From IMG/VR virus record IMGVR_UViG_3300025425_001694: a stretch of DNA of 64,000 bases. The stretch is one strand, 5' to 3'. Source of the DNA: a virus. This document shows positions 31,728 to 57,933 of the stretch, piece after piece. Within the stretch, counting starts at the first letter, position 1. Each line of letters opens with the position of its first letter. Position numbers and translations under genes: made by a program. The notes under the pieces were generated by a model. It was not told the DNA's origin, made no database searches, and saw nothing but the letters and a program-made list of their open reading frames with translations.

Positions 31728-32633
31728 TTATACTTGTTGGCCTGCAGAGTAGTACCGTGCTTGTGTTAAATCACCAACATCAGTCGCATTTCCATCAGAT
31801 GCAAAAGGAAACTTATCAATTGTTCCGATGCCGGGAGTTCCGCCCGATGCATAACCGGATGCATTGCTTGATTGGCCTGCAGCCCCGGATCTACCTTGTG
31901 TTAAATCACCAACATCAGTCGCATTGCCGTCAGCAGCAAAAGGAAACTTATCAATTGTTCCGACTACCGGGGGAGTTCCGCCTGATGCATAACCAGATAC
32001 ATCGCTTGATTGGCCTGCAGGCCCGGCTGTCGCTACTGTTAAATCACCAACATCAGTCGCATTGCCGTCAGCCGCAAAGGGGAACTTATCAATTATCATG
32101 CTCCAATTGCCGGGGTCCATTCCGCCTGAAGTATACCCAGATACAGTACTTGACTGACCTGCCGCCACATATCTTGCTTGTGTTAGATCACCAACATCTG
32201 TTGCATTTCCGTCAGATGCAAAAGGAAACTTGTCAATAACAGTAGAAGTTGGAAAATGGCCACCAGACGAATAACCCGACACTGTACTCGATTGACCCGC
32301 AACGGTCTGTCTTGCTACTGTCAAATCGCCAACGTCTGTTGCATTACCATCAGCTGCAAAAGGAAACTTGTCAATAACAGTAGAATAGGGAGGTGCAGTC
32401 CCACCAGAAGTATATCCGGATACTACGCTTGATTGCCCTCCACATATTTGTCCTCTTAATACTGTCAAATCGCCAACGTCTGTTGCATTGGCATCAGATG
32501 CAAAAGGAAATTTATCAATTACATTTGTGGACGCGGTTCCGCCTGAAGTATAACCGCTTACCGAGCCTTGTGCATGTGACGGGTTTGATACATGTACACT
32601 TGCTATCTTATCTTGAGTAATTTTTATTGCCAT
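31728..32633 (-). CDS. six-repeat (Kelch-like beta-propeller) protein, paralog A
   Basis: six copies of GY.SGG-x-IDKFPFA.D.NATDVGDLT-x-AGQSS. Confidence 0.75.
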   Translation of the reverse strand: MAIKITQDKIASVHVSNPSHAQGSVSGYTSGGTASTNVIDKFPFASDANATDVGDLTVLRGQICGGQSSVVSGYTSGGTAPPYSTVIDKFPFAADGNATDVGDLTVARQTVAGQSSTVSGYSSGGHFPTSTVIDKFPFASDGNATDVGDLTQARYVAAGQSSTVSGYTSGGMDPGNWSMIIDKFPFAADGNATDVGDLTVATAGPAGQSSDVSGYASGGTPPVVGTIDKFPFAADGNATDVGDLTQGRSGAAGQSSNASGYASGGTPGIGTIDKFPFASDGNATDVGDLTQARYYSAGQQV

Positions 32634-32669
32634 TTTTCTATCCTAATATTTTATACTCGTTTGTTGACA

Positions 32670-33671
32670 TTATACTTGTTGACCTGCTAAACTATAACGA
32701 CCCGCTGTTAAATTTCCTACATCAGTTGCATTACCGTCAGCCGCAAAGGGGAACTTGTCGATAATATTAGATTGGGCAGGGACTTTGCCACCAGAAGAAT
32801 AACCAGACGCGGTGCTCGATTGACCAGCTGCCTGGCGTTTTACCGTCGTTAAATCACCAACATCAGTAGCGTTAGCGTCAGATGCAAAAGGAAACTTGTC
32901 GATAATATTTGTGAACGCGCCGCCATCGCCACCAGAAGTATATCCGGATACTGTGCTCGATTGACCAGCTGCATACCTTGTTACTCTTGTCAAATCACCA
33001 ACATCAGTTGCATTACCGTCAGCCGCAAAGGGGAATTTATCAATTATATTTCCAGACCCCAATGTGCTATACCCAGCTGAAGAATATCCGGATACTGCGC
33101 TTGATTGGCCAGCCGGGGAATATCTACCTTGTGTTAAATCACCAACATCAGTTGCATTACCGTCAGCCGCAAAGGGGAACTTGTCGATAACATTTGTAAG
33201 CGTCATGGCGCCGGTTGGATTGGTTCGCCCGCCTGAAGTATAACCAGACGCGTCGCTTGATTGACCAGCCATATAATAACGAACCTGTGTCAAATCACCA
33301 ACGTCAGTTGCATTTCCGTCAGAAGCAAATGCAAACTTATCAATTGTATTCTGCAATGCCTGTGCCGGCCACGTGTTTCCACCTGAAGTATACCCAGATA
33401 CAGTACTTGACTGACCTGCCACAGCATATCTTGCTTGTGTTAGATCACCAACATCTGTTGCATTTCCGTCAGATGCAAAAGGAAACTTGTCAATAACAGT
33501 AGAAGCTGGAAACATGCCACCAGACGAATAACCACTTACCGAGCCTTGTTCAGGCGTCGTTGGATGATCGGCAAATTCTAAATAGTCATTTACAACAAAC
33601 TTTGTTTTGTCACCCGGGTTAATATTACCGGATGCATCTACAACTACGGTACCTTTTACTTTATATGTCAT
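32670..33671 (-). CDS. six-repeat propeller protein, paralog B
   Basis: six copies of the same repeat. Confidence 0.75.
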   Translation of the reverse strand: MTYKVKGTVVVDASGNINPGDKTKFVVNDYLEFADHPTTPEQGSVSGYSSGGMFPASTVIDKFPFASDGNATDVGDLTQARYAVAGQSSTVSGYTSGGNTWPAQALQNTIDKFAFASDGNATDVGDLTQVRYYMAGQSSDASGYTSGGRTNPTGAMTLTNVIDKFPFAADGNATDVGDLTQGRYSPAGQSSAVSGYSSAGYSTLGSGNIIDKFPFAADGNATDVGDLTRVTRYAAGQSSTVSGYTSGGDGGAFTNIIDKFPFASDANATDVGDLTTVKRQAAGQSSTASGYSSGGKVPAQSNIIDKFPFAADGNATDVGNLTAGRYSLAGQQV

Positions 33672-33676
33672 ATATC

Positions 33677-34357
33677 TTATCCAGCATCTGTTGGGTTTGT
33701 GATAGTTTCGCTAAACGGATCTATCTCTGTGAAATCTATTATATCATCACCAGCATCTTCAAAGTCTATATTATTTGCAATAGGATCTTTTGTTTTTAAT
33801 GCAGTGAGCGAAGTAACAGCAGTTGTTTTATAATTATCAAAAAATGTATCTATATCCGATACACCAGTTTGGAATCTTTCATTGGAATATTCAAACAATT
33901 CGCACTGAAGGTCGAACACTTGTAAAGCACCACTCTGATAGAAGACGCTCTCATGTTCAACGTGAGTAATTTTAAAGAACTTGTTAACCATTGGAAAGTA
34001 TACCAGTTCTCCTTCCTTTGGTCTTAAAATAGTAGGGATTATGTTAGTTACATTTTTCTCAAATGTTCGCATTGCAACAGTAAATGTAACTTGGTCACGA
34101 ATTTGTAAACCAAACCTACTAAGGAAGTCGCCTTCACCTTGAAATCCATCAACACTCTTAACATACATTTCCATTTCATATGAAGTATTAAAGATCGAAA
34201 GATCATCTTCATTTAATATATTGTCTACAGCCTGCAAACTACGAGTAAGATAATACGTGTCTATCCCATAAATCTGAATAGACTCGATCACCAGGTCATC
34301 AATGAGAGTCTGTTCGTTTGAATAATCATAATTATTAAAATATGCGTTAGTAGCCAT
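33677..34357 (-). CDS. gp14: neck protein
   Basis: EQ.L..DL..ESIQIYG.D.YY, GEGDFLS.FG..IRD, RP.EG.L.YFP, CELF.YS.E. Confidence 0.93.
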   Translation of the reverse strand: MATNAYFNNYDYSNEQTLIDDLVIESIQIYGIDTYYLTRSLQAVDNILNEDDLSIFNTSYEMEMYVKSVDGFQGEGDFLSRFGLQIRDQVTFTVAMRTFEKNVTNIIPTILRPKEGELVYFPMVNKFFKITHVEHESVFYQSGALQVFDLQCELFEYSNERFQTGVSDIDTFFDNYKTTAVTSLTALKTKDPIANNIDFEDAGDDIIDFTEIDPFSETITNPTDAG

Positions 34358-34360
34358 GTA

Positions 34361-35104
34361 TTAACCCACAAAATTATAGGTAAGCGGTTGCAGGGAATTA
34401 ATAGCGTTTTCTTCCATCTCTTTTCGATCTGTCTTAGCTTCGCTTAATATTTGCTCACCGTTAAACTGTACACCACCTACAAGTTGCATGTTTGTAAACT
34501 TCGTTAAATTAAATCCCCATTGTTCTCTTACTAGAGCTGAAGTGTAATTTTGAAGAAAGCGATCTTGCCAAACATCAGCATATGTTTCACCACTTATGAT
34601 ATCATATCCTTCAATGATAATATGCGATCCTGCGACCATTATATTTTTCTTACCATCAATATAAAGGCGATTTACATGGCGGTTATATCGTACTAAAGGT
34701 TTTCCTACTAAAATTTCCTGAAGAAATTGCAGATGAGACATTGACATATAATAGTTCTGTATACTATATCCTGTAATATCACTGAGGTTATTTAAAACGA
34801 ATTGGTATTGCACATTAAAAATGCCAGTACCCGTTGACACAGATGAGCTCAAGTCAAATATTCGAGTAACACCGAGCATATTTTCCGGTACTGTGACATA
34901 ACCTTGATCTATTTCAGCTTGGGTGAGCTCGTGCTTAAGATAAACCATTTGACTTCCATCATAATGATAATCTCTCCAAAAAGATATAGCTTCGTCAATA
35001 CGGTCTTCAATTTGTTCTTCGGAAACATTTATTTGAATGACCGGAGCACCTATTTTACGAAGTACGTAATCTTTAAACTCTTCGCGTGTTGTTGGTAATG
35101 CCAT
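34361..35104 (-). CDS. gp13: neck protein
   Basis: LR..GAPVI.INV..EQ.EDRI.EA, HYDG, QWG.NL.KF...QL.GG...NG. Confidence 0.93.
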   Translation of the reverse strand: MALPTTREEFKDYVLRKIGAPVIQINVSEEQIEDRIDEAISFWRDYHYDGSQMVYLKHELTQAEIDQGYVTVPENMLGVTRIFDLSSSVSTGTGIFNVQYQFVLNNLSDITGYSIQNYYMSMSHLQFLQEILVGKPLVRYNRHVNRLYIDGKKNIMVAGSHIIIEGYDIISGETYADVWQDRFLQNYTSALVREQWGFNLTKFTNMQLVGGVQFNGEQILSEAKTDRKEMEENAINSLQPLTYNFVG

Positions 35105-35151
35105 GTGAGTTAACCTATTTTTGTTTATATTTATAAAAAAAGAGCTATTGT

Positions 35152-35320
35152 CATTTTTCTATTGACATTTTTCAAATAATAGATATAATAGAATTATCTA
35201 TTCTGGGAGTTGTGGTACTAGATTACAATAATTTAATTCAATGCAGGTACCATTTTTCCATTGACATTTCTTCAACAATGAGTATAATAGAATTATATAT
35301 TCTAGGAGCCATGGTATTAG
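35152..35320 (+). repeat. two imperfect copies (99-bp period) of a sigma70 promoter plus short hairpin, facing antisense to the late genes
   Basis: TTGACA-N16-TATAAT at 35162/35184 and 35261/35283; shared flanks CATTTTTC..TTGACATTT and TATAATAGAATTAT.TATTCT.GGAG..TGGTA.TAGA. Confidence 0.75.
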
Positions 35321-36081
35321 ACGCGTTCTATATCTTCTTCAATGCAATTACTGCCGTACTGTATTTCAACTATCCTAACTTCATCATTTGTATTATTTAT
35401 CAATTGATGCCATGTATGGACCGGAATGTATATTTCACCATGTTTTTTAAGTACTGATGTCTGTATATTATCTAGATCATCACCATGATTTACGGTTGCT
35501 TCTCCGTAACTTACAATCCAATATTCACTTCTTGTTTCGTGTTTCTGCAAACTAAGCGATCTTCCAGGCGCAACAACAAGTTCTTTTACTTTAGTGGATG
35601 GGCCATCAGAATGAAGTACGCGATAATATCCCCATTTTCTTTCTGTTTTTGGTGTTTTCCACTCAGTAAGTATTTTACTGCTGGAATTCATCTTGTGAAT
35701 TCCACCTACTCCGAAAACAAATGATAATCTCTTATCTTTAATTTTCATTTCTGGAATGTTATCATCTGTTCTATCTCCACCGTTCGCAAAGATAATTTCA
35801 GCGTTTGGATACATATTTAAACAATTATGAATTGCCTGGGATGCACCACCATCGCTATCGTCGAATACCATTACAGAGTCAACGACAGAAAGATTTTTTA
35901 CAATCTCAACTCTTTCGTTAATATCCATAAACGGTTGGCCTTTTTTACGAGTCAGCCATTCGTTGCTATTTACCCCAACAACTAGCACGTCCCCTAACTT
36001 TTTCGCTTCATTAAAATATGCTATATGACCAGAATGAATCGGGTCAAATCCGCCTGTAACTAAAACTACTTTCATTATCAA
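35317..36081 (-). CDS. cytidyltransferase-family nucleotidyltransferase fused to a ManC/PMI-type cupin
   Basis: VTGGFDPIHSGH, FANGGDR, SSS.IL; ERKWGYY, LSLQKH..RSEYW, IVEIQYG....EEDIER. Confidence 0.85.
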   Translation of the reverse strand: MIMKVVLVTGGFDPIHSGHIAYFNEAKKLGDVLVVGVNSNEWLTRKKGQPFMDINERVEIVKNLSVVDSVMVFDDSDGGASQAIHNCLNMYPNAEIIFANGGDRTDDNIPEMKIKDKRLSFVFGVGGIHKMNSSSKILTEWKTPKTERKWGYYRVLHSDGPSTKVKELVVAPGRSLSLQKHETRSEYWIVSYGEATVNHGDDLDNIQTSVLKKHGEIYIPVHTWHQLINNTNDEVRIVEIQYGSNCIEEDIERV

Positions 36082-36791
36082 TCTCCTAAATGCATATTTG
36101 AAACTTCGCCATCAAAGAAAAACATTTGCCACATTCTACAATCATGTATATTGCTACCAAAATATTCAGAAGCAGCATGTATTGATCCACCTTCGAATAT
36201 AACTAATCTGTTAAAAATATTACCAAAAGAATCTACCGTATCGTATGGAGTCTTATCTAAAAATGTATTTCCAGGAAATACTTTATGGCCAGTCCCATCG
36301 TTCCAATTAATTTGGGAATTATGATGGATTTTAGTTTCTCTATGCATATAGGTACTTGTACCAGTTTGTGGTGGGGCATCTGGAGTTAGGTATATCATAG
36401 CGGCCCATTTTTGTTGGTCACAGTGATATACTAATTTTTCACCGGCGTGGTTGTGTTGAAACCTTCCGTTCATACCATATGTTTCCCATTCGCTAATTCT
36501 TTCGCCAATGATACTTTCAAATGTTTCCTTTAGTCCTGGAAAAAGGTGTTGTGTTCTTGTTCTTTTACCGATATACCCGTCATCATCAAAGTATTCTTGT
36601 TGAAGCGCAAATTCTCGCATCGCGTAAGGATCCGCATAAAAATTATCAATTATGAATGCTCTTTTGTTTTCTTGTAGATTGGGGTTAACCGCGTATACAG
36701 AAGAATCGTCATGATGAGTAATTTCTTCATCTTGAACTTCTATAATTTCTTCTTCTGTAATTTCTTCTTCTGTAATAAGCCAATTTTTCAT
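36078..36791 (-). CDS. 2OG-Fe(II) oxygenase-like protein (DUF6445-like)
   Basis: IIDNFYADP...R.FAL, HCD...WAAMIYLTP..P...GT, FNRLVIF....H. Confidence 0.75.
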   Translation of the reverse strand: MKNWLITEEEITEEEIIEVQDEEITHHDDSSVYAVNPNLQENKRAFIIDNFYADPYAMREFALQQEYFDDDGYIGKRTRTQHLFPGLKETFESIIGERISEWETYGMNGRFQHNHAGEKLVYHCDQQKWAAMIYLTPDAPPQTGTSTYMHRETKIHHNSQINWNDGTGHKVFPGNTFLDKTPYDTVDSFGNIFNRLVIFEGGSIHAASEYFGSNIHDCRMWQMFFFDGEVSNMHLGD

Positions 36792-36792
36792 A

Positions 36793-38352
36793 TTAAAAAC
36801 CCATGTGTTTTTGTCTAACGAAATCTAAATCGTATGTTGTTGCTGAGATTGGTGTTTCTTCACCTTCAAATACTTCTTTATTAGGAGACAACTTTCTCCA
36901 ACCGATACCCCATTTACGTGTTAAATAATCAATATTTAACTCATTTGAGTGGTCAAGCTTTTCTTTTAAACCATTTTCGTTTTTCTCTGTTTGACTACCG
37001 GTTTCATAATACATTGTACTATCACCGTGTCCATGCATATATTTATTCTCTAGACCAACAATCTTTCGAATAGGACGATGCGACATTCGCATAATATAAT
37101 CGGCATCTTCACAATATGCGGGGTATGTGTTTTCATCAAACAACCCAAATACCTTTACAACGTTTTCTCGAATAAGGAAAAGATCCCACGCGCCAACATT
37201 AAAGTCTCCAGCATTTGGATGTATCATGCCGACCATTGGATCGCCGTTTATTCTTTCAACCATTTCGCCTAAAAGACCAGGGCCAAAGGCGACATCGTCG
37301 TTTGCAATAATCCAATAAGGAGCTAACATATAACATTTAATAATAAGGTTCCAAGCACCTGCGCACCCTACATTTGCAGGCATGTGAACTACTTTAATAT
37401 TATCAATAAACTTATGATCCATTTTAACCAAACGGTTGAGCTCTTCATCTAATTCACCCCTGCCATTATTGTTTATAATGACAAAGTTTTCTACAGGATA
37501 GTCAACACTCATAATAAGTCTTGAAATCCAATAAGTGCTATTTACAACTGGTGCACCTATGACTGGGATTTTATCTACCATATTCACCAACTCCTTTATA
37601 TTAATATTATTTCCGTTTTCTTTCCACCAATCAGTTATAAATTTACTACTCTGATTTTGGATTGTGTCTATATTATCCTTGTTGTCCTGTCTTATAAGAG
37701 TGGAATCATGTACTCTATTTTCTGTAAAGAACGGAAACACGTAGCATCTTTTATAGTTATAAGGATATATTACATTCTCAGGTAAAGGAATGTGTCTTGT
37801 CTCTTTTATTTTTAGGTTGAAAGAATTTGTTTCTACATCGTAGAAGTCATCCAATATTTCCTTTGCATATTCTCGTCGCATTAAATATGCACAACACGAC
37901 CAATCATTCCACCTTTTTCTTCTTATTCTCATGTCACTCCAATTAACTGGATCTTCTTTAATTAGTGACATTTGAATAACCTGCCAATCTTGTGGCAACG
38001 GTTCGATAAATTCACTGAAATCAAAGTTCCAATAATCGGCTAGAGAAAAATTAATATCATCTTCGCAAAAGAAACCAATTTCTTCATCGGTCTCTGTATA
38101 CCAACGGTATATCATATGTAAATGGGATACTGCAACAGATAGTACTTCAGAAGAAATACCTATAGGACTTAAGTGTGGACTTGTTATATCTAATTGTTCT
38201 CGGATATCAACGGTTCTTCCATCGTATCCTTCAATCATACAAAAATTTACTCCTCTTGAGGACAGCTGCGATTCTAAATCGCGCTGCCTCTCTAAGGAAT
38301 CTTTTAAAGAAAGATAATATACTGTTGGAAAGTTTTTAAGCTGCTTCGCCAT
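36793..38352 (-). CDS. two-domain glycosyltransferase (GT25-like plus GT2-like)
   Basis: YYLSL..S.ER, DG, SH, FCEDD, AYLMRR.YA (GT25-like); G.AGAWN, NDDV.F, G.FDE..YPAYCEDADY (GT2-like). Confidence 0.8.
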   Translation of the reverse strand: MAKQLKNFPTVYYLSLKDSLERQRDLESQLSSRGVNFCMIEGYDGRTVDIREQLDITSPHLSPIGISSEVLSVAVSHLHMIYRWYTETDEEIGFFCEDDINFSLADYWNFDFSEFIEPLPQDWQVIQMSLIKEDPVNWSDMRIRRKRWNDWSCCAYLMRREYAKEILDDFYDVETNSFNLKIKETRHIPLPENVIYPYNYKRCYVFPFFTENRVHDSTLIRQDNKDNIDTIQNQSSKFITDWWKENGNNINIKELVNMVDKIPVIGAPVVNSTYWISRLIMSVDYPVENFVIINNNGRGELDEELNRLVKMDHKFIDNIKVVHMPANVGCAGAWNLIIKCYMLAPYWIIANDDVAFGPGLLGEMVERINGDPMVGMIHPNAGDFNVGAWDLFLIRENVVKVFGLFDENTYPAYCEDADYIMRMSHRPIRKIVGLENKYMHGHGDSTMYYETGSQTEKNENGLKEKLDHSNELNIDYLTRKWGIGWRKLSPNKEVFEGEETPISATTYDLDFVRQKHMGF

Positions 38353-43190: not shown

Positions 43191-43192
43191 TT

Positions 43193-45922: not shown

Positions 45923-46948
45923 CTACTCTGAAACGAGCCATCTATCGTTTTTAAGTGTCCAATCAACAACTTCTTCAATTCTTTCCCGAACAGATTTGGA
46001 AGGTACCCAACCCATTTCAGCCATTTTATTTCCATCCAATGCATAACGAAGATCGTGCCCAGGTCTGCTTGAATGAAAATCCACGTATTCATAATTTAAT
46101 TCTTTTCCTTGCGTTTCAGCAATAATTTTTGCAAGCTCGTAATTATCAATTTCTTCAGCACCTACGATATTAAACTTAGGGCATTTTGCGCCACCCCATT
46201 CCAATTCTTTAACATCCTTACCAAAAAGAAACATGACAGCATCAGCTACATCTTCAGCGTGTATGTAATGACGTGATCCTGCAATTGTTTTGGTGTTATC
46301 GCTATGGATCGTAATCTTTTCACCGTCTCTTGCTCGTTTAATACACATCGGAATATACTTTTCCGGATGCTGTCTTTCGCCAAACACATTCATAGTATGA
46401 GTAATATAGATTGGCAGCTTATATGTATTTTCGTATGCTACCGCGAGTTCTTCGCCGCCTGCCTTTGAAGCGCTATATGGATTTGTTGAATTGTAGCGAT
46501 CATTTTCCTTATACTTAATACCATCTGGTGCAGGACCAAAAACTTCATCTGTACTAAAGTAAATAAATCTTTCTAAATTATCCTTTTGGTGTTTAGCAAA
46601 TTCTAGAATATTACACGTTCCTACAACATTGTCAAGGACAAATTCCATTGGATATTCAATAGAACGGTCTACATGTGATCCAGCTGCTAGGTGCGCGATA
46701 TAATCAACTTTTCCAATTTCAGCACGAATAAGTGGATTTAATTCTGCTTTTAAATCATGAAAAACAACTTTTACTCGTTTTTTTGTTTCAACATCAAACT
46801 CTTGTAGAGCATCATCTAAGCGATTTAAATTACCACTATAATCCAATCTGTCGAGTGTTACAATCTCCCAGTCTGTTTCCTTTAGCACCTTACTCACGAG
46901 ATGGTGAGCAATAAATCCAGCTCCGCCAGTAATCAAAATTCTTTTCAT
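45923..46948 (-). CDS. rmlB: dTDP-glucose 4,6-dehydratase (NAD-dependent epimerase/dehydratase)
   Basis: ITGGAGFI, HLAAGSHVDRSI, STDEVFG, PYSASKA, Q.PEK.IP, RPGHDLRYA. Confidence 0.85.
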   Translation of the reverse strand: MKRILITGGAGFIAHHLVSKVLKETDWEIVTLDRLDYSGNLNRLDDALQEFDVETKKRVKVVFHDLKAELNPLIRAEIGKVDYIAHLAAGSHVDRSIEYPMEFVLDNVVGTCNILEFAKHQKDNLERFIYFSTDEVFGPAPDGIKYKENDRYNSTNPYSASKAGGEELAVAYENTYKLPIYITHTMNVFGERQHPEKYIPMCIKRARDGEKITIHSDNTKTIAGSRHYIHAEDVADAVMFLFGKDVKELEWGGAKCPKFNIVGAEEIDNYELAKIIAETQGKELNYEYVDFHSSRPGHDLRYALDGNKMAEMGWVPSKSVRERIEEVVDWTLKNDRWLVSE

Positions 46949-46997
46949 AGTATAAACTCCATTTTTAATAATTCAATGTCTTGATTAATTGTATTTA

Positions 46998-47831
46998 TCA
47001 ATTATTCGTAACGTCTGGATAAAATGACTTATAAAACCACTGATTCTCATTTACAACTTGGTTGTGAAAATTATCAGAAAGTACTCTTGTCGGTTCTTTC
47101 CAAGGTATCATTTGCGGTTTAGTTTTGTGATCTGTTTTTTCCCGGAAGTATGCGTTATCATGCTCAAACATCGATGCCTGCGGTATATTATCCAAGTCAT
47201 GTTGATAGTTTTGTAAACCGAGGAATTCGTATATTCGTTTTAACATGTAGTTTGGATCACGAAGAAGATCCTCGTAGCGAATAAATTTAACTCTTGAAGG
47301 ATCTCGTTTAAACAGTTCAATATACTTTGGTATTTCGTGGCGAAGAGTTACAGAAAAAGAATTAGTTTCCTTGAAGTGATAAGCGTATTTTTCGTCTTCG
47401 GTCAACGAGCCGTATAGTGTATTGTCATTACCAAACGTGTGTAGAGCTTTAATCTTGCTATTAACACGATCAAAACTTTCTACGATATCTCTAAGATCGC
47501 GAACTGTAATTAACATTTTTGATTTTGGGAATAAGTGGTGTAGACCTGACCAATCTCGTGCCTTTGAAATTACAACTGGTTTTTGAGTAAGACCTTCGTA
47601 CCAACCGCGAGTTGCACCAAGAGCCATACCATAAACAGCATCGTCGGCTTGCTCACAACTCATTGCTTGAAACGCTTCTGAGTATCTTGACTTAATTAAA
47701 ATTTGTTCATTAAGTATATGTGGAAATGGGTCTGTAGAAGTAGTAAACACTTCTGGGTTTTGCTGTAACACATTCATTAGGACGGTCGACCCAGTTCTAG
47801 GTAAACCACCGCAAAAATTCAATTGTTTCAT
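46998..47831 (-). CDS. PAPS-dependent sulfotransferase
   Basis: 5'PSB-like GLPRTGST, 3'PB-like VRD..DIV.SF, RYEDL..P...L..IY.FLG. Confidence 0.82.
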   Translation of the reverse strand: MKQLNFCGGLPRTGSTVLMNVLQQNPEVFTTSTDPFPHILNEQILIKSRYSEAFQAMSCEQADDAVYGMALGATRGWYEGLTQKPVVISKARDWSGLHHLFPKSKMLITVRDLRDIVESFDRVNSKIKALHTFGNDNTLYGSLTEDEKYAYHFKETNSFSVTLRHEIPKYIELFKRDPSRVKFIRYEDLLRDPNYMLKRIYEFLGLQNYQHDLDNIPQASMFEHDNAYFREKTDHKTKPQMIPWKEPTRVLSDNFHNQVVNENQWFYKSFYPDVTNN

Positions 47832-48005: not shown

Positions 48006-49001
48006 TTATACAGAGCTTTGATTTCCATGGACCCAGCGTCTTGATGCTGTTGTTAGATCCCCAACATCTGTTGCGTTAGCGTCAGAAGCAAAAGGAAACT
48101 TATCAATTGTGTTTGTGGCCGCAGGCCCTGCAAACCCGCCAGACCTATAACCGGAAGCCGTACTCGACTGACCAGCGGCCGTAGTCACAACAGATGTCAA
48201 ATTACCAACATCTGTTGCATTTGCATCAGAAGCAAAAGGAAACTTATCAATAACATTAGAAGTTGCTGGATAATAGGTGCCAGTACTATGCCCGCCTGAA
48301 GTATAGCCAGATATTAAACTTGATTGGCCGGCTACGCTGGATCTAGCTTGAGAAAGATTAGCGACATCAGTTGCATTTCCATCAGTTGCAAATGAAAATT
48401 TGTATATAGTATTTTGTGTCGAACCGCCTGTGTTACCACCTGATACATAACCATTTTCCAAGCTTGATTGGTCAGTGCACCACGCCCGGATCGCTGGAAG
48501 ATCACCAACGTCCGTTGCATTAGCATCCGTAGCGAATGCAAACTTGTCTATCGTATTAACAATCGGTGCTGATTGCCCTCCGGCTGTATAGCCTGATACG
48601 TCGCTTTCATGGCCTGAGCCATTTCCTCTTGCTTGCGTTAAATCACCAACATCGGTTGCATTTCCGTCAGCAGCAAAGGGATACTTGTCAATAACGTTAG
48701 AGGTGGCAGCAGGCCCGCCGCCCACACTATAACCACTTACCAAACTTGATGCTCCAGTTTGGCTGCCGAACGCAGAAGTACGTGTCAAATTACCAACATC
48801 AGTCGCGTTGGCGTCAGATGCAAAAGGAAACTTATCGATTACATTAGAATTTGGCTGCCCACCATGTGTGTATCCGGATACACTACCGTATGCAGTTGGA
48901 GTTGGCGGCACGTTAAACTCATTCGCGGTAGCTTTACCGTCAAAGTATATGCCGTCATCGTATTCAGTAAACGAAAAAAGTTCTGTTATAACGGTTGCCA
49001 T
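48006..49001 (-). CDS. six-repeat propeller protein, paralog C
   Basis: six repeat units. Confidence 0.75.
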   Translation of the reverse strand: MATVITELFSFTEYDDGIYFDGKATANEFNVPPTPTAYGSVSGYTHGGQPNSNVIDKFPFASDANATDVGNLTRTSAFGSQTGASSLVSGYSVGGGPAATSNVIDKYPFAADGNATDVGDLTQARGNGSGHESDVSGYTAGGQSAPIVNTIDKFAFATDANATDVGDLPAIRAWCTDQSSLENGYVSGGNTGGSTQNTIYKFSFATDGNATDVANLSQARSSVAGQSSLISGYTSGGHSTGTYYPATSNVIDKFPFASDANATDVGNLTSVVTTAAGQSSTASGYRSGGFAGPAATNTIDKFPFASDANATDVGDLTTASRRWVHGNQSSV

Positions 49002-49031
49002 TCATTTAATCCTTGGAGTTGTTTAGTCTAT

Positions 49032-50042
49032 TTATACCTGTTGACCGGCCGCGGCGTAAACAGCATTAGTTAAATTACCAACATCTGTTGCATTAGCATC
49101 AGCAGCAAAAGGAAACTTTTCAATCGTGTTAATAGCTGCCCCAGGTGGCTGATATCCCCCAGAAGTATAACCAGAAGCTGTGCTTGACGTGCCTGTTACT
49201 CTGCGCGAAAATAACGTTGTTAAATCACCAACATCAGTCGCATTTCCATCAGATGCAAAAGGAAATTTATCAATTGTGTTAACACTTACAACCCCAGGAC
49301 CAATATTACCCCCAGAAGTATAACCTGAAGTTGCACTATTCTGTCCTGCAGCTTGCTTACGACTTTGCGTTAGATCCCCAACATCACTCACGTTTGCATC
49401 TGTAGAAAATGGAAACTTTTCAATAATATCAGTGTTTACTGAAGGGTCAGAAGGTAAACCGCCTGAAATATAGCCTGACACAACACTTGAGTGACCAGCT
49501 GGTGACGACCTACCTTGCGTTAAATCGCCAACATCTGTTGCGTTTGTGTCAGCTGCAAAAGGAAACTTGTCGATTACTAAGGAAGACGGTGGAAATACAA
49601 AACCACCTGATGTATACCCAGATACAGTACTTGACTGACCCGACGCACTGTTCCTTACCTGTGTTAGATCACCAACATCTGTTGCATTTCCGTCAGCTGC
49701 AAAAGGAAACTTGTCGATTTTATTAACACGAGTAGGGGACCCCGGTGTAGTACCACCAGAAGTATAACCGTTTTCTGTACTTGATTGCCCAGCAACAAAT
49801 GCTCTGTTATCAGGTCCGGACAAAAACCCAGATTGAGTTGCGTCAGCATCAGATGCAAAAGAAAACTTGTTAATTCTGTTAGTATGTGGCGGATTTATAC
49901 CACCAGACGAATAACCACTTACAGTACCCTGCGCATGGCTATCCGCAAATCCTAAATAGTCATTAACTACAATTTTAGTTTTATTTGCTGTGATAGACGC
50001 GTTATCACTTATAACCTCAACATCTTTTACAAACCATGCCAT
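49032..50042 (-). CDS. six-repeat propeller protein, paralog D
   Basis: six repeat units. Confidence 0.75.
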   Translation of the reverse strand: MAWFVKDVEVISDNASITANKTKIVVNDYLGFADSHAQGTVSGYSSGGINPPHTNRINKFSFASDADATQSGFLSGPDNRAFVAGQSSTENGYTSGGTTPGSPTRVNKIDKFPFAADGNATDVGDLTQVRNSASGQSSTVSGYTSGGFVFPPSSLVIDKFPFAADTNATDVGDLTQGRSSPAGHSSVVSGYISGGLPSDPSVNTDIIEKFPFSTDANVSDVGDLTQSRKQAAGQNSATSGYTSGGNIGPGVVSVNTIDKFPFASDGNATDVGDLTTLFSRRVTGTSSTASGYTSGGYQPPGAAINTIEKFPFAADANATDVGNLTNAVYAAAGQQV

Positions 50043-51034
50043 TATGCTTGTTGACCTGCTTGGCGAAGTCTTCCTACTGTTAAATCACCAACATCAGTTG
50101 CATTAGCATCAGAAGCAAAGGGAAACTTTTGAATTGTATTAGAAACCGGGCCACCAGACACATAGCCAGACGCTGTGCTAGATTGTCCTTCGTAATATGA
50201 ACCTACTTGCAACAGGTCGCCGACATCAGTAGCATTTCCATCAGATGCAAAAGGAAATTTATCGATTACATTGGTTGTGCCCGGGGATTGGCCGCCGGAA
50301 GCATAACCAGATTCTGTGCTACTTTGGCCTGCGCCGTCAAACCTTCCTACTGTTAAATCGCCAACATCAGTTGCATTACCATCAGTAGCAAAAGAAAACT
50401 TGTTAATAACATTTGAAGCAGGAGTGTTCCCGCCTGACACATAACCAGAAACTAGGCTTGATTGCCCCGTAACCAACGTGACGGTATTTGTTAAATCACC
50501 AACATCTGTTGTATTACCATCAGTAGCAAAAGGAAACTTGTGAATTTCAGCAACGGTCGGTTGGCCCGCGATTTGAGGGGCGGTGGCGCCGGAAGTATAA
50601 CCATTCGTGCCGCTTGATTGACCAGCTCCTTGCCATCCTGTGGCCGCTATACCAACATCAGTTGCATTACCATCAGATGCAAAAGAAAATTTCATGATAG
50701 TGCCTATGTTATAGGCAGGGGCATTTGTTCTTCCCCCAACAACATACCCGGCCGTAGAGCTAGATACTCCAACTCCGTTGCTATAGGGTAATGTCAAATC
50801 ACCAACGTCAGTTGCATTTCCGTCAGATGCAAAAGGAAACTTGTCAATTACAGTGGAGTACGCCGGTTCTTCACCGCCTGAAGTATAGCCACTTACAGTA
50901 CCTCCAAATTGCCAACGCTCTTCATATTCTGTAGCCAATATGTTGCCGTCAAACTCAAAACCTTCATCAGTAAAGGTTAACGTATAGTCACCAAAATTTA
51001 TGGTACCGTCTTGGTTAAATTTAATTTGGGACAT
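50042..51034 (-). CDS. six-repeat propeller protein, paralog E
   Basis: six repeat units; TAATG coupling to paralog D. Confidence 0.75.
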   Translation of the reverse strand: MSQIKFNQDGTINFGDYTLTFTDEGFEFDGNILATEYEERWQFGGTVSGYTSGGEEPAYSTVIDKFPFASDGNATDVGDLTLPYSNGVGVSSSTAGYVVGGRTNAPAYNIGTIMKFSFASDGNATDVGIAATGWQGAGQSSGTNGYTSGATAPQIAGQPTVAEIHKFPFATDGNTTDVGDLTNTVTLVTGQSSLVSGYVSGGNTPASNVINKFSFATDGNATDVGDLTVGRFDGAGQSSTESGYASGGQSPGTTNVIDKFPFASDGNATDVGDLLQVGSYYEGQSSTASGYVSGGPVSNTIQKFPFASDANATDVGDLTVGRLRQAGQQA

Positions 51035-51050
51035 GTACTACTTCTTTCTA

Positions 51051-51179
51051 TTAAACGTCTTCAACGAGCTCTTTTAAAATTTCAAACGCATCATTATCTT
51101 CCATTTGAAATTTTCTTAATACTTCAATTAATTCATTTTCATCAAGTTCTTCAATCTTTTTTGCTAACATAATTTCCAT
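51051..51179 (-). CDS. small acidic hypothetical protein (42 aa, not in ORF track)
   Basis: MEIMLAKKIEELDENELIEVLRKFQMEDNDAFEILKELVEDV*, fills the gap in the operon. Confidence 0.5.
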   Translation of the reverse strand: MEIMLAKKIEELDENELIEVLRKFQMEDNDAFEILKELVEDV

Positions 51180-51185
51180 ATTGTA

Positions 51186-51521
51186 TTAACTTCCGTTTTT
51201 AGTTACAAAATCGTCGTACCAAGCTTCAGTCATTGTTGTTACTTCGGCATCAGTCATATCTGTTGGATCTGCACCAGGATCAGATTCATCCATATTCTGA
51301 AACGGAGTTACTCCATGCATTGCGAGGTTGCGAGTAACCAATTCTGCTTTTGTAAAGGACGTAACCGAGTCGGGAACGTAATAATCGCGAGTATCATCTA
51401 CCCAGCCGATATATGTATTGTCTGCGCTATTAAACCAGTGGCCGCGATCGCCGACCCAACCTGGTATTTCAGCGCGATTACCACCATTAATTCTATGAAG
51501 CATATATTCTATTACAGCCAT
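51186..51521 (-). CDS. hypothetical protein
   Basis: 111 aa; GGAGG SD; late promoter at 51567. Confidence 0.7.
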   Translation of the reverse strand: MAVIEYMLHRINGGNRAEIPGWVGDRGHWFNSADNTYIGWVDDTRDYYVPDSVTSFTKAELVTRNLAMHGVTPFQNMDESDPGADPTDMTDAEVTTMTEAWYDDFVTKNGS

Positions 51522-51575
51522 TTTATTTCCTCCGGGTGTTATAGTTTAAATAAAGGTTTCTCAGTGTATTTATAA

Positions 51576-52346: not shown

Positions 52347-53283
52347 CTGTCTCTTCTGTAAGGTCAGCAAGAGATGCAACTTTGTTTGAAAAGGAAATTG
52401 CTTCGTTTGGTTCTGGGTCGTATCCTAGAAGTTCCATTCGAGTAATGTCAACCTTATGCTTATTAATCAATTCATTTGCTAAACCATCAACAAACTCAAA
52501 TAATCCTTCGCTACCCCAAGAGTTTTGTTCAACTTCTTTCTTTACATATTCTTGAATGATACGTTGCATTTTACTCGGGTTTACACCAATCTGTTCCATA
52601 TACTCTTGTTCACCCTTTGTAATTTTACCAGATTGGCGAACGTCACGAATACATTGAACAATACTTCTTTTAAGATGTGTAATTGATTCTTCTTTTTCAA
52701 TATCATGCTCAGAGAAACCACTTACCTTTTCTTTAAGATCTTCGTAGATTTCTTGAAGGGCAAGAACATCTTTCATCGCACCTTCGATATATGTCATACC
52801 GTCAACAGCACCTTCTTGAAGCTGAGCAAGTTTAATCTTAAGATCAACTTCTCTCCAATAATCAAGATCTACAGCATTTTGCAGTTCTTCTTGAAGTTTA
52901 CGAATTTTTGCTTCATTTTTAATATGACGCCACTTTGCCTCGGTAAGAGCAGAATTCTTTTTTGATAACTCAGCAGAAATTTGGCGCATATTCTTATGTG
53001 GACTGTGGTAACTAAAGTTAATATGTTTCCACATCCATTGCGAGTGACTGTGGTTCCAAATATTACCTAATTCGCCAACATTCTTTAGAGCAGCGTCAAC
53101 GAGCTGAGAATTTTCGTTGAGCGTCTTGTTCCCAAAACTAGGGAGATTACCTGTAGTACCGTGGCCAAAAACCATAGCCATCGGAACCTTTAACTTTTCG
53201 GCATTTTCAGTCGTTACGATATTGCTTTTACGTATTTCTTCAAATACAGTAAGTTCACGTACGTTTTTCTTTTCTTCTTCCAT
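52336..53283 (-). CDS. coiled-coil hypothetical protein
   Basis: SP..NMRQI.AE..K...AL.EA, G.I..G..EY..Q.G.NP; helical; start taken at MEEEKK. Confidence 0.65.
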   Translation of the reverse strand: MEEEKKNVRELTVFEEIRKSNIVTTENAEKLKVPMAMVFGHGTTGNLPSFGNKTLNENSQLVDAALKNVGELGNIWNHSHSQWMWKHINFSYHSPHKNMRQISAELSKKNSALTEAKWRHIKNEAKIRKLQEELQNAVDLDYWREVDLKIKLAQLQEGAVDGMTYIEGAMKDVLALQEIYEDLKEKVSGFSEHDIEKEESITHLKRSIVQCIRDVRQSGKITKGEQEYMEQIGVNPSKMQRIIQEYVKKEVEQNSWGSEGLFEFVDGLANELINKHKVDITRMELLGYDPEPNEAISFSNKVASLADLTEETDED

Positions 53284-53284
53284 G

Positions 53285-54619
53285 TTATTTAAATCTCCTT
53301 GGTCCATGTATCCAAATTACGAGTGCATAGCGATCTCCGGTTTCAATTGGAGTAACTACATGTGGCATATAGCTCGGGAATAGGGAAATAGATCCTCTTT
53401 CACGAACTGCTTGTATTTTATTTCCGTGGTCATCAACAACTAAATCACAACCTGTATAGCTGTCTGGGTTGGATAATTGAGCCGTGAATGATATTTTTCT
53501 TGTTGCTACTGTACCGTTTCCAGCATCAACGTGCCAATCATAGTGTCCTGGGACTTCTGAATCGGATGGATAATGAATTAACTGTAGTGAATGTTCAATA
53601 TGTGATATGTCATAGTCAAAGTGTATTGCGTTTACAGCAGTTATAGACTTTGCTACTTTATCAAAAATCCATTTATTCTCTTTATCATTTTCAACTGAGT
53701 ATATTTCAGCTGATCTTATTTTACGAGAAACTGTGCCTTTACTATCGCCACCTACGCTCGCAGATGCTGCGTACGAATCGTTTGCGATCTGAATAATACG
53801 ATCACATTCTTCATCTGTAAACTTTAACTGCGGTAATGTTTTATTATTGATTGGAAAATACCCAGGCAAAGTATTATCCCGGCCAGGTAAAATTATCCCG
53901 CCAAACACCGGATCCGGAATAAGCATATCTTTTTTCTTTTCAAGAATTTCTTGAATAGGTACCTGATTATGTTGATGAACGATCGTAGTCGTCTGTTCTT
54001 GCTGGGCGGGTTGTTGAACTTCATTTGTGTTTGTCATAGTAGCTGCTGTTTTATCAACTCCCAATTCTGTTCTTCCATCCATAGCTTGATCTGCGTGTGG
54101 ACCATCTGCATCAACAAAATGCAAGAATACTTGACAATGCCAATTACCTTTAAACGGCTTTCTCCAGTGTACCATTTCAGTACCTTTGTAGGCTGCCATT
54201 TCTCCTGGTTCCATTGTTACTGCTTTTTCTACAGTACCATCGTCGTTTGAAAAATAGATTGGCCAGTTTGCCTTTGCATCATAACCTAATGTTAATGTTG
54301 TACTAATCTCACACGCTGGGCGATCCTTATGTTTTTTGAGTACGTCTCCCGGGCGATAAATGCGAGCATAGGAGTATGTAGGAAGTAGTCTTTTTCCGAC
54401 TGCCTTTCCAAGAGGTTCTGCGACGTTCTGAAGCAGTGCGTCAAATTTAAGATCGCCATACACTGCATCTGATAGTGGGCACTGGTCGTCCTTCACTAAC
54501 TTACCAGCGTCATGCAGATCAAACATGTGCTTTACTAAACCATCAGATTGTTCTTTTGATAAAACATCCTGTAGTACTACGTATCCATTTTCTTCAAAAT
54601 AATTTACTGTGTCGGTCAT
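53285..54619 (-). CDS. tandem two-domain 2OG-Fe(II) oxygenase
   Basis: domain 1: YSYARIY..G..L..HKDR..CEIS, HWR; domain 2: YDWHVD, RKIS...QLS....Y.G.DL, FPSY.PH.VTP...G.RY.LV.W..G. Confidence 0.85.
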   Translation of the reverse strand: MTDTVNYFEENGYVVLQDVLSKEQSDGLVKHMFDLHDAGKLVKDDQCPLSDAVYGDLKFDALLQNVAEPLGKAVGKRLLPTYSYARIYRPGDVLKKHKDRPACEISTTLTLGYDAKANWPIYFSNDDGTVEKAVTMEPGEMAAYKGTEMVHWRKPFKGNWHCQVFLHFVDADGPHADQAMDGRTELGVDKTAATMTNTNEVQQPAQQEQTTTIVHQHNQVPIQEILEKKKDMLIPDPVFGGIILPGRDNTLPGYFPINNKTLPQLKFTDEECDRIIQIANDSYAASASVGGDSKGTVSRKIRSAEIYSVENDKENKWIFDKVAKSITAVNAIHFDYDISHIEHSLQLIHYPSDSEVPGHYDWHVDAGNGTVATRKISFTAQLSNPDSYTGCDLVVDDHGNKIQAVRERGSISLFPSYMPHVVTPIETGDRYALVIWIHGPRRFK

Positions 54620-54625
54620 AATATA

Positions 54626-55198
54626 TTATTCTCCATTCGTATATTGAAATTTGCAAGTCACAACGTATCTTTTATCCTGAGCCGAAGCAAATGGTGGTGA
54701 ACCACAGTGCGGAATACCTCCATCAAAAACAACCAATCTACCAGGAACGTAAGCGGCAGCATATTCGATGTTATCAAGAGTTTCATTGAAAAAGAAGGTA
54801 TGTCCTCCCCAATGAATATTCCAATCCGGATGCGGATAATAGAGAGCAGTCTTTGGCTTTCCTAAGTGATTATCGTCGATGTGTATCGTATCAAAATCAC
54901 TTGTGGTAGCAAGGTTTACATATTGACGGTGTACTATGTAATTATCGCCCAAGTTTGGATCTACTCTATTGAGTTTATTTATAATACCAAAATTAATTGA
55001 TTGCTCACGCGACTCAAAAACATATTTTAATTTGTGCTTTTCACCATATATATGCGAACGCAACCCGTCACTAAAATTTGTAGCTGAGTAAGGAAATTGG
55101 CGAACAGCAATAAACATTCGCGACATTTCTTCAAAAGTAAAAAGATCATCGTATACGTCAACTTTTCGGCCGTTAATATTAATTTCTTTATGTTTCAT
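54626..55198 (-). CDS. 2OG-Fe(II) oxygenase (prolyl-hydroxylase-like)
   Basis: IHID, LYY...W...WGG.T.F, PGRLVVFDG.IPH, RY. Confidence 0.82.
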   Translation of the reverse strand: MKHKEININGRKVDVYDDLFTFEEMSRMFIAVRQFPYSATNFSDGLRSHIYGEKHKLKYVFESREQSINFGIINKLNRVDPNLGDNYIVHRQYVNLATTSDFDTIHIDDNHLGKPKTALYYPHPDWNIHWGGHTFFFNETLDNIEYAAAYVPGRLVVFDGGIPHCGSPPFASAQDKRYVVTCKFQYTNGE

Positions 55199-55755
55199 GA
55201 TATACCTATATTAAAGCTAATGCTTACTCTATTTTCTTCTGATGTGTTTGGTTCTACGTAATGTTCTAACCAACCCGGGAAAACAATACATGCAAGATGT
55301 TGAGGATCTATTGGATAATTTTTAGAGCGAATAGTGTGAGTATCGCTACGGATATTTGGATTTACAAATATTAATCTGCCACTGCTTTTTGGCACTTGTA
55401 AATAAAAAACTCCAGATAGACAACCTTCATGAGTATGTTGATAATTAAAAGAATGTTTACCATTTACATTCGCCCACATACTTTGTACTACAGGATTTTC
55501 TATCCCGTAGTCTTTTAGAATTGTTTGTCCAATTGATTTAATAAGAGTATTATTTACAAACTCTTTAAAAAGCGGTTCTTCGTGAAGATTATCCCGAGAC
55601 TGCCATCCGCCTCCTGCATTGCTTTTATTTGCAGAAGGTTCAGCAGAATGCAATTCAAGTATTTTTTCAAGATAATCTTCAGCCTGATATTTTTCACTAC
55701 TTAAAACATAACCCCAAATAGGAGTTGGAAATATATTTACTTCGTGGTCGTTCAT
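55195..55755 (-). CDS. 2OG-Fe(II) oxygenase (TIGR02466-like)
   Basis: FPTP, GGWQS, WAN.N.....N..H.H....SGV.Y, FP.WL.H.V.PN.....R.SISFN. Confidence 0.85.
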   Translation of the reverse strand: MNDHEVNIFPTPIWGYVLSSEKYQAEDYLEKILELHSAEPSANKSNAGGGWQSRDNLHEEPLFKEFVNNTLIKSIGQTILKDYGIENPVVQSMWANVNGKHSFNYQHTHEGCLSGVFYLQVPKSSGRLIFVNPNIRSDTHTIRSKNYPIDPQHLACIVFPGWLEHYVEPNTSEENRVSISFNIGIS

Positions 55756-55848
55756 AATTTACTCCATAATATAACATTGTATTGTTATTTATACAAACCC
55801 GGCCACTAATTTAAATGCTACAGTTTAATATTCTTGTGTTTTACATTT

Positions 55849-56820
55849 TTAGTATTGATGGCCGCTAAGGCCGTAGCGAGTACTTGTCAAATCGCCAACA
55901 TCTGTCGCGTTACCATTTGAAGAAAAAGGAAACTTATCAATCTCGTTTCGATTGGGAGGAACTTGGCCACCGGAAGTATAACCATGGGTTAAACCTGATG
56001 AACCGGCACTTGCCTTGCGGATTACGGTTAAATTGCCAACATCTGTTGCGTTGCCATCAGAAGCAAAAGGAAACTTATCGATTACATTTGATGTCGGAGA
56101 TGCTCCACCTGAAGTATAGCCGTCGTCTGCAGACTGTTGGCCCGCTTGCCAATATCTACCTGCTGTTAAATCACCAACATCGGTTGCATTACCATCAGAC
56201 GCAAAAGGAAACTTATCGATTACATTAGTACTAGTTTGCCCACCTGATGTATAACCTGACACAGCGCTCGACTGACCAACCAGCCTTGGTCTTCCTGCTG
56301 TTAAATCACCAACGTCTGTTGCATCACCATCAGCAGAAAAAGGAAATTTATCGATTACATTCGTCACTGAACCGCCCCCGGAAGTATAGCCAAAGCTAGT
56401 GCCGCTTTGCGCAGCTCCGAGAAGGGCTGTACTGAGCTTTGTTGGAGTTAAGCTTCCTACAGCTGCCCCATCACCGTCGCTAGCAAAGTCAAATTTTTGG
56501 ATTGAGTTTGTAGTTCCTCCACCTACAGTATAACCAGAAGTTGTGCTTGAAAGACCTGCGCCGTAACCAACCCCAGTCGCTAAGTTCGCACTGGTCGTTG
56601 CATTGGCATCAGAAGCAAAAGGAAACTTATCAATAATTTTTATCTGTGCTTGACCGCCTGATGTATAGCCACTCGTAGAACCTTGGGGCACACCTTGCGG
56701 GCCAAGTGGTACAGCATAAGATCCGTACTTAAACTTCCCGTCGATCTCAATACCATCGGCATGAACTGAGATACTATAGGCACCAAAGTTTATCGAGTCT
56801 TTATTAATTGAAATCGGCAT
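55849..56820 (-). CDS. six-repeat propeller protein, paralog F
   Basis: six repeat units. Confidence 0.75.
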   Translation of the reverse strand: MPISINKDSINFGAYSISVHADGIEIDGKFKYGSYAVPLGPQGVPQGSTSGYTSGGQAQIKIIDKFPFASDANATTSANLATGVGYGAGLSSTTSGYTVGGGTTNSIQKFDFASDGDGAAVGSLTPTKLSTALLGAAQSGTSFGYTSGGGSVTNVIDKFPFSADGDATDVGDLTAGRPRLVGQSSAVSGYTSGGQTSTNVIDKFPFASDGNATDVGDLTAGRYWQAGQQSADDGYTSGGASPTSNVIDKFPFASDGNATDVGNLTVIRKASAGSSGLTHGYTSGGQVPPNRNEIDKFPFSSNGNATDVGDLTSTRYGLSGHQY

Positions 56821-56850
56821 TTACAAAATCCTTAGAGTTCTTTAGTCTAT

Positions 56851-57933
56851 TTATACTTGTTGGCCTGCAGATTGGTACCTGCCTTGTGTTAAATCACCAA
56901 CACCTGATGCATTAGCATCTCCCGCAAAAGGAAACTTATCAATTGCTGCGACTAACGGGGGCTGTACGTTGCCGCCTGATGTATAACCGGATGTATCGCT
57001 TGATTGGCCTGCAGCCCCGAACCGTGCTTGTGTTAAATCACCAACATCAGTCGCATTGCCGTCAGCAGCAAAAGGAAACTTATCAATTGTTCCGACTACC
57101 GGGGGAGTTCCGCCTGATGCATAACCAGATACATCGCTTGATTGGCCTGCAGGCCCGTACCGCGCTACTGTTAAATCACCAACATCAGTCGCATTGCCGT
57201 CAGCCGCAAAGGGAAACTTGTCGATAACATTAGTTGTGCTTAAGCCACCCGAAGTATACCCGGATACTGTGCTTGTCTGGCCGGACACTTGATATTTACC
57301 TACTGTTAAATTGCCAACGTCAGTCGCATTTGCGTCAGCAGCAAAAGGAAACTTATCAATTGTATTTGTGCCCCCACTCCCGCCTGATGCATAACCCGAC
57401 ACTGTACTCGATTGACCCGCAACGAACCGTCTTGCTACTGTCAAATCGCCAACGTCTGTTGCATTACCATCAGCTGCAAAAGGAAACTTGTCTATTATGT
57501 TGGATAAAGTTGACGGCCCCTCGAGGCCGCTTGCAGAGTAACCACTCGTAGTACTCGATTGCCCTCCACCTATATTTCCTCTTAATACTGTCAAATCGCC
57601 AACGTCTGTTGCATTGGCATCAGATGCAAAAGGAAATTTATCAATTACATTTGTGGACGGGGTTCCGCCTGAAGTATAACCGCTTACCAAGCCTTGCGCT
57701 TGTGTATATACAGCTGAGATGAACCTAACGACCTGCGCTTCTGCATTAAACTGATTAAAAGAAAAACCATCTTCGTCAATAGCCTTATCTCCAACTACAG
57801 AATAACCATCAGAAGAAACTGTATCGTTATTTGCAATAAGAATATAAGCATCGTTGGCTATCTTGGAATTAGCCGATGCAGTATAATTTCGTGCATCACT
57901 TAAAAATTCTGTTCCACCTGACTTAAGTGCCAT
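56851..57933 (-). CDS. six-repeat propeller protein, paralog G
   Basis: six repeat units. Confidence 0.75.
   Translation of the reverse strand: MALKSGGTEFLSDARNYTASANSKIANDAYILIANNDTVSSDGYSVVGDKAIDEDGFSFNQFNAEAQVVRFISAVYTQAQGLVSGYTSGGTPSTNVIDKFPFASDANATDVGDLTVLRGNIGGGQSSTTSGYSASGLEGPSTLSNIIDKFPFAADGNATDVGDLTVARRFVAGQSSTVSGYASGGSGGTNTIDKFPFAADANATDVGNLTVGKYQVSGQTSTVSGYTSGGLSTTNVIDKFPFAADGNATDVGDLTVARYGPAGQSSDVSGYASGGTPPVVGTIDKFPFAADGNATDVGDLTQARFGAAGQSSDTSGYTSGGNVQPPLVAAIDKFPFAGDANASGVGDLTQGRYQSAGQQV

Follow-up and report, generated by a model that had tools for sequence, protein, structure and literature searches.

How does a phage gene come to hold blocks of DNA that are identical to one paralog 25 kb away, blocks that match a second paralog next door, and blocks that match neither? 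The question is raised by paralog A, a gene in a 64,000-nucleotide (nt) stretch of IMG/VR virus record IMGVR_UViG_3300025425_001694 (hereafter the window), which comes from an uncultured T4-like phage. A (31728-32633, 301 amino acids (aa)) belongs to a family of seven paralogs in the window, A to G, all on the minus strand, in which a variable, locus-specific N-terminal part is followed by six repeats of 44-52 aa, making the 42 units already counted when the DNA was read from its letters alone (the sequence-only reading). The repeats share a near-invariant scaffold, IDKFPFASDGNATDVGDLT ... AGQSSxVSGYxSGG, and each carries two variable segments, one after DLTxxR and one after SGYxSGG; in a structural model described below they form the blades of a Kelch-like propeller. 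Here, we present evidence that A arose by recombinational exchange between paralogous loci without any need for a reverse transcriptase, to which we give a probability of roughly 85%, and that near-identical phage strains carry very different versions of the propeller genes.

The two relatives that matter most for A are G (56851-57933, 360 aa), which has a 96-aa N-terminal domain of its own before its propeller and long tracts in common with A, and B (32670-33671, 333 aa), which lies directly upstream of A. The longest A-G tract is exact over 131 nt (31895-32025 in A, 57027-57157 in G, like all tracts given here on the minus strand) and covers the strands of blade 4, its second loop and the start of blade 5. 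Five adjacent bases follow, all of which differ (ACAGC versus CGGTA, encoding TA versus RY), before exact identity resumes for 51 nt (32031-32081, 57163-57213). In blade 2, 32271-32372 equals 57391-57492 except for 4 nt spanning the loop codons, three of which differ, so that exact parts of 34 nt (32271-32304, 57391-57424) and 64 nt (32309-32372, 57429-57492) are split by QT versus RF. A further 83 nt, exact between 32451-32533 and 57577-57659, takes in the first strand, the loop and blade 1. All of these A-G tracts are in register, whereas the B-like tract of A (32125-32248, against B 33382-33505) is displaced by two blades, joining A3 to B1, with exact parts of 81 nt (32168-32248, 33425-33505) and 39 nt (32125-32163, 33382-33420). 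The sequence-only reading had placed every one of these matches correctly, giving only the resumed identity after the five-base gap as about 45 nt, and its claim of recent DNA exchange between paralogous loci is upheld both by these exact tracts and by the clustering of synonymous differences described below.

The significance of such tracts depends on how much identity the scaffold alone provides, since it gives exact DNA identity over 30-50 nt between almost any two blades. Among the 15 paralog pairs that exclude A, the longest exact match is 38 nt; C, D and E have no long tracts with other paralogs, the maximum being 48 nt between A and D. A second background was drawn from five related IMG/VR phage records of 155-220 kb, which were used solely for repeat statistics; each has 6-19 matches to A, at a protein identity of at most 70-77%, and yielded 4-8 full paralog open reading frames (ORFs), between which no exact match exceeds 44 nt. 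By exponential fits, the expected number of matches of at least 131 nt is 6e-10 for the 15 pairs without A and 2.5e-12 for the related phages, and the A-G and A-B tracts are thus far above chance.

The divergence between A and G is distributed very unevenly. Among codons for the same residue, synonymous differences are found in 3 of 140 within the tracts versus 30 of 51 between them (Fisher P = 4.5e-18), and the synonymous differences fall into 38 runs against a permutation mean of 65, with none of 100,000 permutations giving as few. One might suppose that the G propeller was recently duplicated into A and has since changed only by point mutation and positive selection on its loops, with no more recombination, and most differences within the shared tracts do change loop amino acids. 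This account is, however, contradicted by the roughly 59% of synonymous codon differences between tracts beside about 2% in them, and it explains neither the out-of-register identity of A3 and B1 nor five of five adjacent bases differing amid 187 otherwise identical bases, which makes it extremely unlikely. Duplication of the whole gene does not apply, since the N-termini of A and G are unrelated and similarity begins at an AQG motif just before the first propeller strand.

Comparison of A with all candidate donors allowed the gene to be painted segment by segment (coordinates in this paragraph are nt of gene A). The closest sequence is A's own N-terminus at 1-55, G at 56-183, 262-363 and 553-745, and B at 364-512. 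There is no close donor for 184-261 and none for 746-822, while 513-552 is a loop akin to another A allele with no donor in this genome, the match to that allele lying at 513-527. The 3' end consists of a borderline segment of 48 nt in common with D (823-870) and a weakly G-like segment (871-906), the last 18 nt of which are identical in a strain with a 313-aa A allele. A donor search for the window's own loop variants VATAGPA, ARQTVA, QGRSGAA and RGQICGG found none. The description of A as a mosaic of G and B is therefore right as far as it goes, with DNA of both kinds present, but it leaves out the three segments for which this genome offers no donor. Tree building with all 42 units tells a similar story, in that A1, A2, A4 and A6 each pair with the G blade of the same position (support 0.94 for A2-G2 and 0.98 for A4-G4) and A3 groups with B1 and D2; the expected clustering across genes is thus seen for these blades of A, the remaining units clustering neither by gene nor by position.

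The differences that do occur inside the tracts are informative about their origin. Across 150 tract codons, there are 10 non-synonymous codon differences, which involve 15 nt, and 3 synonymous ones, which involve 4 nt, and 6 of the 10 belong to the loop after DLTxxR, so that the earlier statement that differences are non-synonymous and fall in variable segments is mostly correct. The tracts do not establish the diversifying selection on the loops that was claimed with it: non-synonymous and synonymous differences are about equally frequent per site there, and the multi-nucleotide loop differences look like imported patches, not point mutations; positive selection on the loops is no more than suggested. 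Differences clustered in short loops of a probable phage binding protein are also the usual setting of a diversity-generating retroelement (DGR), and targeted loop mutagenesis by a DGR or a similar system is a rival explanation. The mismatched bases of A and G are, however, of all four kinds in both copies and on either strand, rather than the adenines of one copy, and variant loops can be traced to other blades, so the chance that such a system was at work is close to negligible; for the shared tracts, where mismatches are not adenine-specific, a DGR is ruled out. The reverse transcriptase family RVT_1 was matched in control genomes but in none of the five related phages, whose genomes are at least 90% complete in four cases, the rest of this phage genome not being covered. 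The mismatch spectrum and these five genomes bear out the contention that no reverse transcriptase is needed.

Exchange of this kind predicts chimeric alleles in natural populations, and these were found, as the sequence-only reading had foreseen. Matching contigs were collected from JGI, ENA and Logan metagenome assemblies (loci L072-L114) by way of conserved neighbours, namely gp14, gp15, a 186-aa oxygenase and a sulfotransferase; exact look-ups of A, B, F, G and the allele proteins of L073, L083 and L093 were unsuccessful. Judging by the sample series, we take the samples to be from Antarctic lakes and fjords. Apart from the paralogs, the contigs match the window at 98.6-100% identity. The mosaic A allele itself recurs in two other assemblies (L072/L092 and L094), one base off the window.

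Other strains carry quite different alleles at the same loci. In L093, whose flanks are 0.77% divergent from the window, the A gene joins A's N-terminus to a propeller that is 96.3% identical to the window's G (857 nt over six blades, with a 307-nt exact run); the likeness to G extends over all blades, which shows that a G-type propeller was placed at locus A. The B gene of L093 differs from that of the window by 6% versus the 0.77% of the flanks, and in the loop after DLTxxR of blade B4 (the D-A loop of the fold model) it has 44 nt identical to the G4 loop and to its own A4 loop, where the window's B differs. The contig from L093's sample starts inside F, so that the G allele of this strain is not covered. 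L073-75 have a 313-aa A allele in which the first 13 residues are the same and the propeller is unrelated, although the DNA downstream of A has only 2 mismatches to the window in 6,872 nt (99.97% identical). In L109, G's N-terminal domain is followed by a completely different G propeller. Smaller changes are seen in L095, for whose RYIGGG loop no donor was found and where one B loop has 9 of 12 adjacent bases different from the window with only two other differences in the remaining 990 nt or so, and in the partial A allele of L076, where 8 bases in 45 nt differ from the window's A in such a way that blade 5 becomes G5-like, making a longer G-like tract. When the alleles of all strains are taken together, 51 codon differences in the loops are non-synonymous and 15 synonymous, as against 27 and 43, respectively, in the scaffold; these counts do not represent independent events.

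Several further observations on these alleles deserve mention in their own right. The adjacent F gene of L109 (L109:1564-2556) is also another allele, of 330 rather than 323 aa, and G and F seem to have been replaced together in this strain. Alleles of E of 331 aa (L085:5781, L104:1795, L105:25) have a dense patch of differences from residue 40 to about 94, covering the N-terminal end and blade 1, some of them with a second patch near residues 129-135, and are otherwise almost identical to the window's E, which is another mosaic locus. Alleles of C (L101:3831, L103:3831) have a patch at residues 239-247 or so, in the long B-C loop of blade 4, and are otherwise identical. At 32596-32743 and 31745, contigs of several assemblies, some of them 25 and 64 kb long, break off at the 3' end of A, within B or immediately beyond it, and in most samples there is no assembly across the A/B locus.

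Since all of these data are short-read assemblies, it has to be asked whether assemblers collapsed or cross-joined similar repeats and so created false identical blocks. Many contigs do break at or beside propeller genes, three of them (L079, L087 and L091) end 0-6 nt from the borders of the 131-nt tract, and L090, which comes from the G locus but opens with 202 nt of A type, an A-type loop among them, is possibly a chimera formed through the 131-nt repeat. On the other side, the window, JGI assembly 3300025603 and ENA assembly ERZ27315444 give the same mosaic A, one single-nucleotide polymorphism apart, in contigs of 19-40 kb, and the ENA assembly was made with k=141, a word size that exceeds the 131-nt repeat. 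A chimeric path would link the flanks of A to those of G rather than yield an in-frame mosaic with intact flanks, and at the junction where the L076 allele returns to A-specific sequence the identity spans just 12 nt, not enough for a k-mer assembler to form a chimera. The contig ends at the tract borders, together with the shared start of L077, L078 and L081 at window position 31745, where A alleles begin to differ, are as expected of a real two-copy repeat and a multi-allelic site in an assembly graph. We consider it very unlikely that the identical blocks are artefacts.

A more serious alternative is that the mosaic was made by allelic recombination between the A alleles of co-infecting phages, with the likeness to G going back to one older transfer of a whole propeller to A and not to a number of recent A-G events in this genome. 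A fully G-type A allele exists (in L093), very different A alleles occur in near-identical backgrounds, some stretches of A lack a donor in this genome, and in its first 77 nt and its QGR loop the window's A agrees with the L093 A allele, not with G. Against this, the 131-nt tract is identical to the window's own G, the longest exact match to L093's A being 79 nt there, and donors for the B1-like tract of A and for the G4-type loop of L093's B are present in the respective genomes no more than about 1 kb away; at least one between-locus transfer is needed anyway. Purely allelic shuffling is thus possible but doubtful as the source of the whole pattern. Exchange between paralogous loci shows here what ectopic gene conversion or recombination is known by, namely bounded tracts of near-identity, uneven synonymous divergence, segments with different closest relatives, and polymorphism of the tracts among strains (L093, L076, L095, L073 and L109).

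The smallest exchanged tracts are of about 44 nt (one loop with its flanks), others measure 120-190 nt, and the largest takes in the entire propeller of 850 nt; their ends are located in loops as well as in scaffold, so that the earlier picture of an exchange of whole blades does not hold as worded. In one case the direction is clear: the B-like tract went from B, or a B-type gene, into A, because B1 is present in both full B alleles and missing from L093's A. T4-type phages recombine very actively, and work by Singer and colleagues in 1982 reportedly found that tens of bases of homology suffice for T4-type recombination. The highly active homologous recombination machinery of a T4-like phage could then use the scaffold identity: were a strand to invade at one block of the scaffold and the intermediate to be resolved at a second block, the loops between them would be copied; the DNA would pass between loci by gene conversion or double crossover, inside one genome or between co-infecting genomes. 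At locus A, the window's lineage probably carried a G-type propeller first, and took up a B1-derived tract and patches from other alleles later, to arrive at the present mosaic.

Some points weigh against exchange between paralogous loci, or at least against its generality. Every sequence is a short-read assembly, and L090 may be a product of misassembly. The A-G exchange has yielded no polarity, and none can be had from a cultured relative: megablast of the A/B region against GenBank phages gave no match, and tblastn found only Synechococcus phage S-SKS1, at 27.6% identity. The other six paralogs share scaffold codons only modestly more often than expected (0.525 versus 0.435), which gives no sign of an ongoing homogenization of all seven and is too small an excess for us to claim selection for recombination homology. 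Lastly, the five related phages, with 4-8 or more paralogs each, are without long inter-paralog tracts. Exchange is not constant across the family.

What such exchanges could do for the phage depends on the fold. An AlphaFold (AF2) model of A, made from a 65-sequence alignment, has 24 strands, with a predicted local distance difference test score (pLDDT) of 91.9 and a predicted template modelling score (pTM) of 0.89, and Foldseek places it closest to designed Kelch-type propellers and to the Kelch domains of KLHL12 and Keap1 (template modelling scores 0.80-0.83, 14-18% identity). On this model the paralogs are Kelch-like six-blade propellers with four-stranded blades. The order of the strands makes the segment after SGG the B-C loop and that after DLTxxR the D-A loop; both variable loops thus share one face, as they do in any four-stranded blade, and the opposite face bears the conserved A-B and C-D turns. 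In Kelch domains, it is on the side of the B-C and D-A loops that substrates are bound. Since both loops sit on this face, each exchange event could alter what the protein binds, and we infer from the geometry a role of the loops in binding and a benefit to the phage through changed binding specificity. We would advance only tentatively the further idea that the seven propeller genes make up a self-contained combinatorial diversifier, in which a codon-conserved scaffold is kept as homology and expressed loci and co-infecting genomes keep trading loops, blades and whole propellers. If true, this would be a means of fast, reverse transcriptase-independent change of binding specificity and a phage counterpart, on a Kelch-like fold, of cassette-based antigenic variation.

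The gene neighbourhood is compatible with a role at the virion surface, though no proof of one. A and B sit between the neck genes gp14 (33677-34357, minus strand) and gp15 (30874-31695, minus strand), both recognized by Pfam search, with gp13 (34361-35104, minus strand) beyond gp14 from the Pfam tag on the called gene. Three further paralogs, recognized as ORFs with repeat units, follow one another elsewhere on the minus strand, C at 48006-49001, D at 49032-50042 and E at 50042-51034, and F (55849-56820, minus strand) lies directly downstream of G. F and G are in turn directly downstream of a collagen-like fibre gene (57937-60237, minus strand), whose 766-aa product has Collagen repeats and ends in a Peptidase_S74 chaperone domain. 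In near-identical strains this fibre protein has 754 and 740 aa (L082:1555-3819 and L083:1597-3819), which suggests a polymorphism in the number of its G-X-Y repeats. Between the propeller clusters, 45923-47831 and 53285-55755 hold genes for an NAD-dependent sugar epimerase/dehydratase and a sulfotransferase and three 2-oxoglutarate (2OG)-Fe(II) oxygenase-like genes, the products of which may modify the fibre or the propellers. The spacers from G to F (56821-56850) and from D to C (49002-49031) are alike (ATAGACTAAA.AACTC.AAGGATT), as are the N-terminal parts of B and D and those of E and F, which suggests that the family expanded through the duplication of gene pairs or the exchange of N-terminal modules.

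The sole family match of the propeller proteins is PHROG 19111, of unassigned function, and none of their more than 4,800 homologs is named; no Pfam family, the Kelch models included, matched at E <= 0.01, there being only sub-threshold matches to families other than Kelch, and a literature search found no description of a propeller protein family of this kind. The family is large and multi-copy in phage genomes of about 155-220 kb, and the behaviour described here may be widespread. If the propellers bind host surfaces, such a phage would renew its binding repertoire from its own paralogs and from other phages, a process seen here in natural populations that are otherwise almost clonal. Exchange also accounts for the breaking of short-read assemblies of such phages at the propeller genes, and the propeller offers a scaffold that is naturally tolerant of loop change.

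How, finally, does this locus compare with systems that are already known? In fold, the predicted propellers resemble the Kelch domains of KLHL12 and Keap1 in their six four-stranded blades, the GG doublet after strand B and the closure by an N-terminal strand, yet they are set apart from these eukaryotic domains by low sequence identity (the 14-18% given above) and by falling short of the Pfam Kelch profile. In their population pattern, they recall metaviromic islands, the hypervariable regions for host recognition that Mizuno and colleagues are said to have described from natural phage populations in 2014. In both, sharp differences at a handful of loci set apart genomes that are otherwise near-clonal, and these loci are where short-read assemblies end. 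Unlike in metaviromic islands, some of the variation here has a traceable source, namely paralogs that the genome itself carries.

In Neisseria pilE/pilS, Borrelia vlsE and Anaplasma msp2, antigenic variation proceeds by segmental gene conversion, for which a conserved framework serves as homology, and the copying of short paralog tracts into another locus to form mosaics is common to these systems and to A. Such cassette systems have one expression site, silent truncated donors and often a dedicated initiating element. The seven copies in the window, in contrast, are all full-length ORFs, each with its own ATG start codon, and no dedicated element was seen; with all seven complete, their layout is not that of a silent-cassette system. 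DGRs, for their part, act on phage receptor-binding proteins such as Mtd of Bordetella phage BPP-1 and the tentaclins (PMC10743442). Their targets likewise vary in surface loops on a constant phage-protein scaffold, the locus differing from them in its lack of an adenine-specific pattern and in the absence of a reverse transcriptase from the five relatives searched.

The closest precedent is the recombination of the T-even adhesins gp37 and gp38, in which exchange at conserved motifs or close to them (His boxes, glycine-rich motifs) reassorts hypervariable parts of the protein (Tetart et al. 1996, 1998; Trojet et al. 2011, PMC3157838), and tail-fibre mosaicism is known from T4 relatives (PMC2993671). 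Both cases concern T4-type phages with conserved motifs flanking hypervariable segments, chimeric proteins and no reverse transcriptase, and the modular layout of gp38, a scaffold alternating with variable loops and giving natural chimeric alleles, is found here as well. The proteins nevertheless differ, the present ones being predicted to have a Kelch-like six-blade fold with no sequence relation to the adhesins (Pfam and PHROG searches gave no link to gp38) and a host-binding role that is putative. Whereas gp38 is a single gene that is shuffled between phages, the seven full-length paralogs of this genome can donate to one another, and a further difference is that the process is visible here within a near-clonal natural population.

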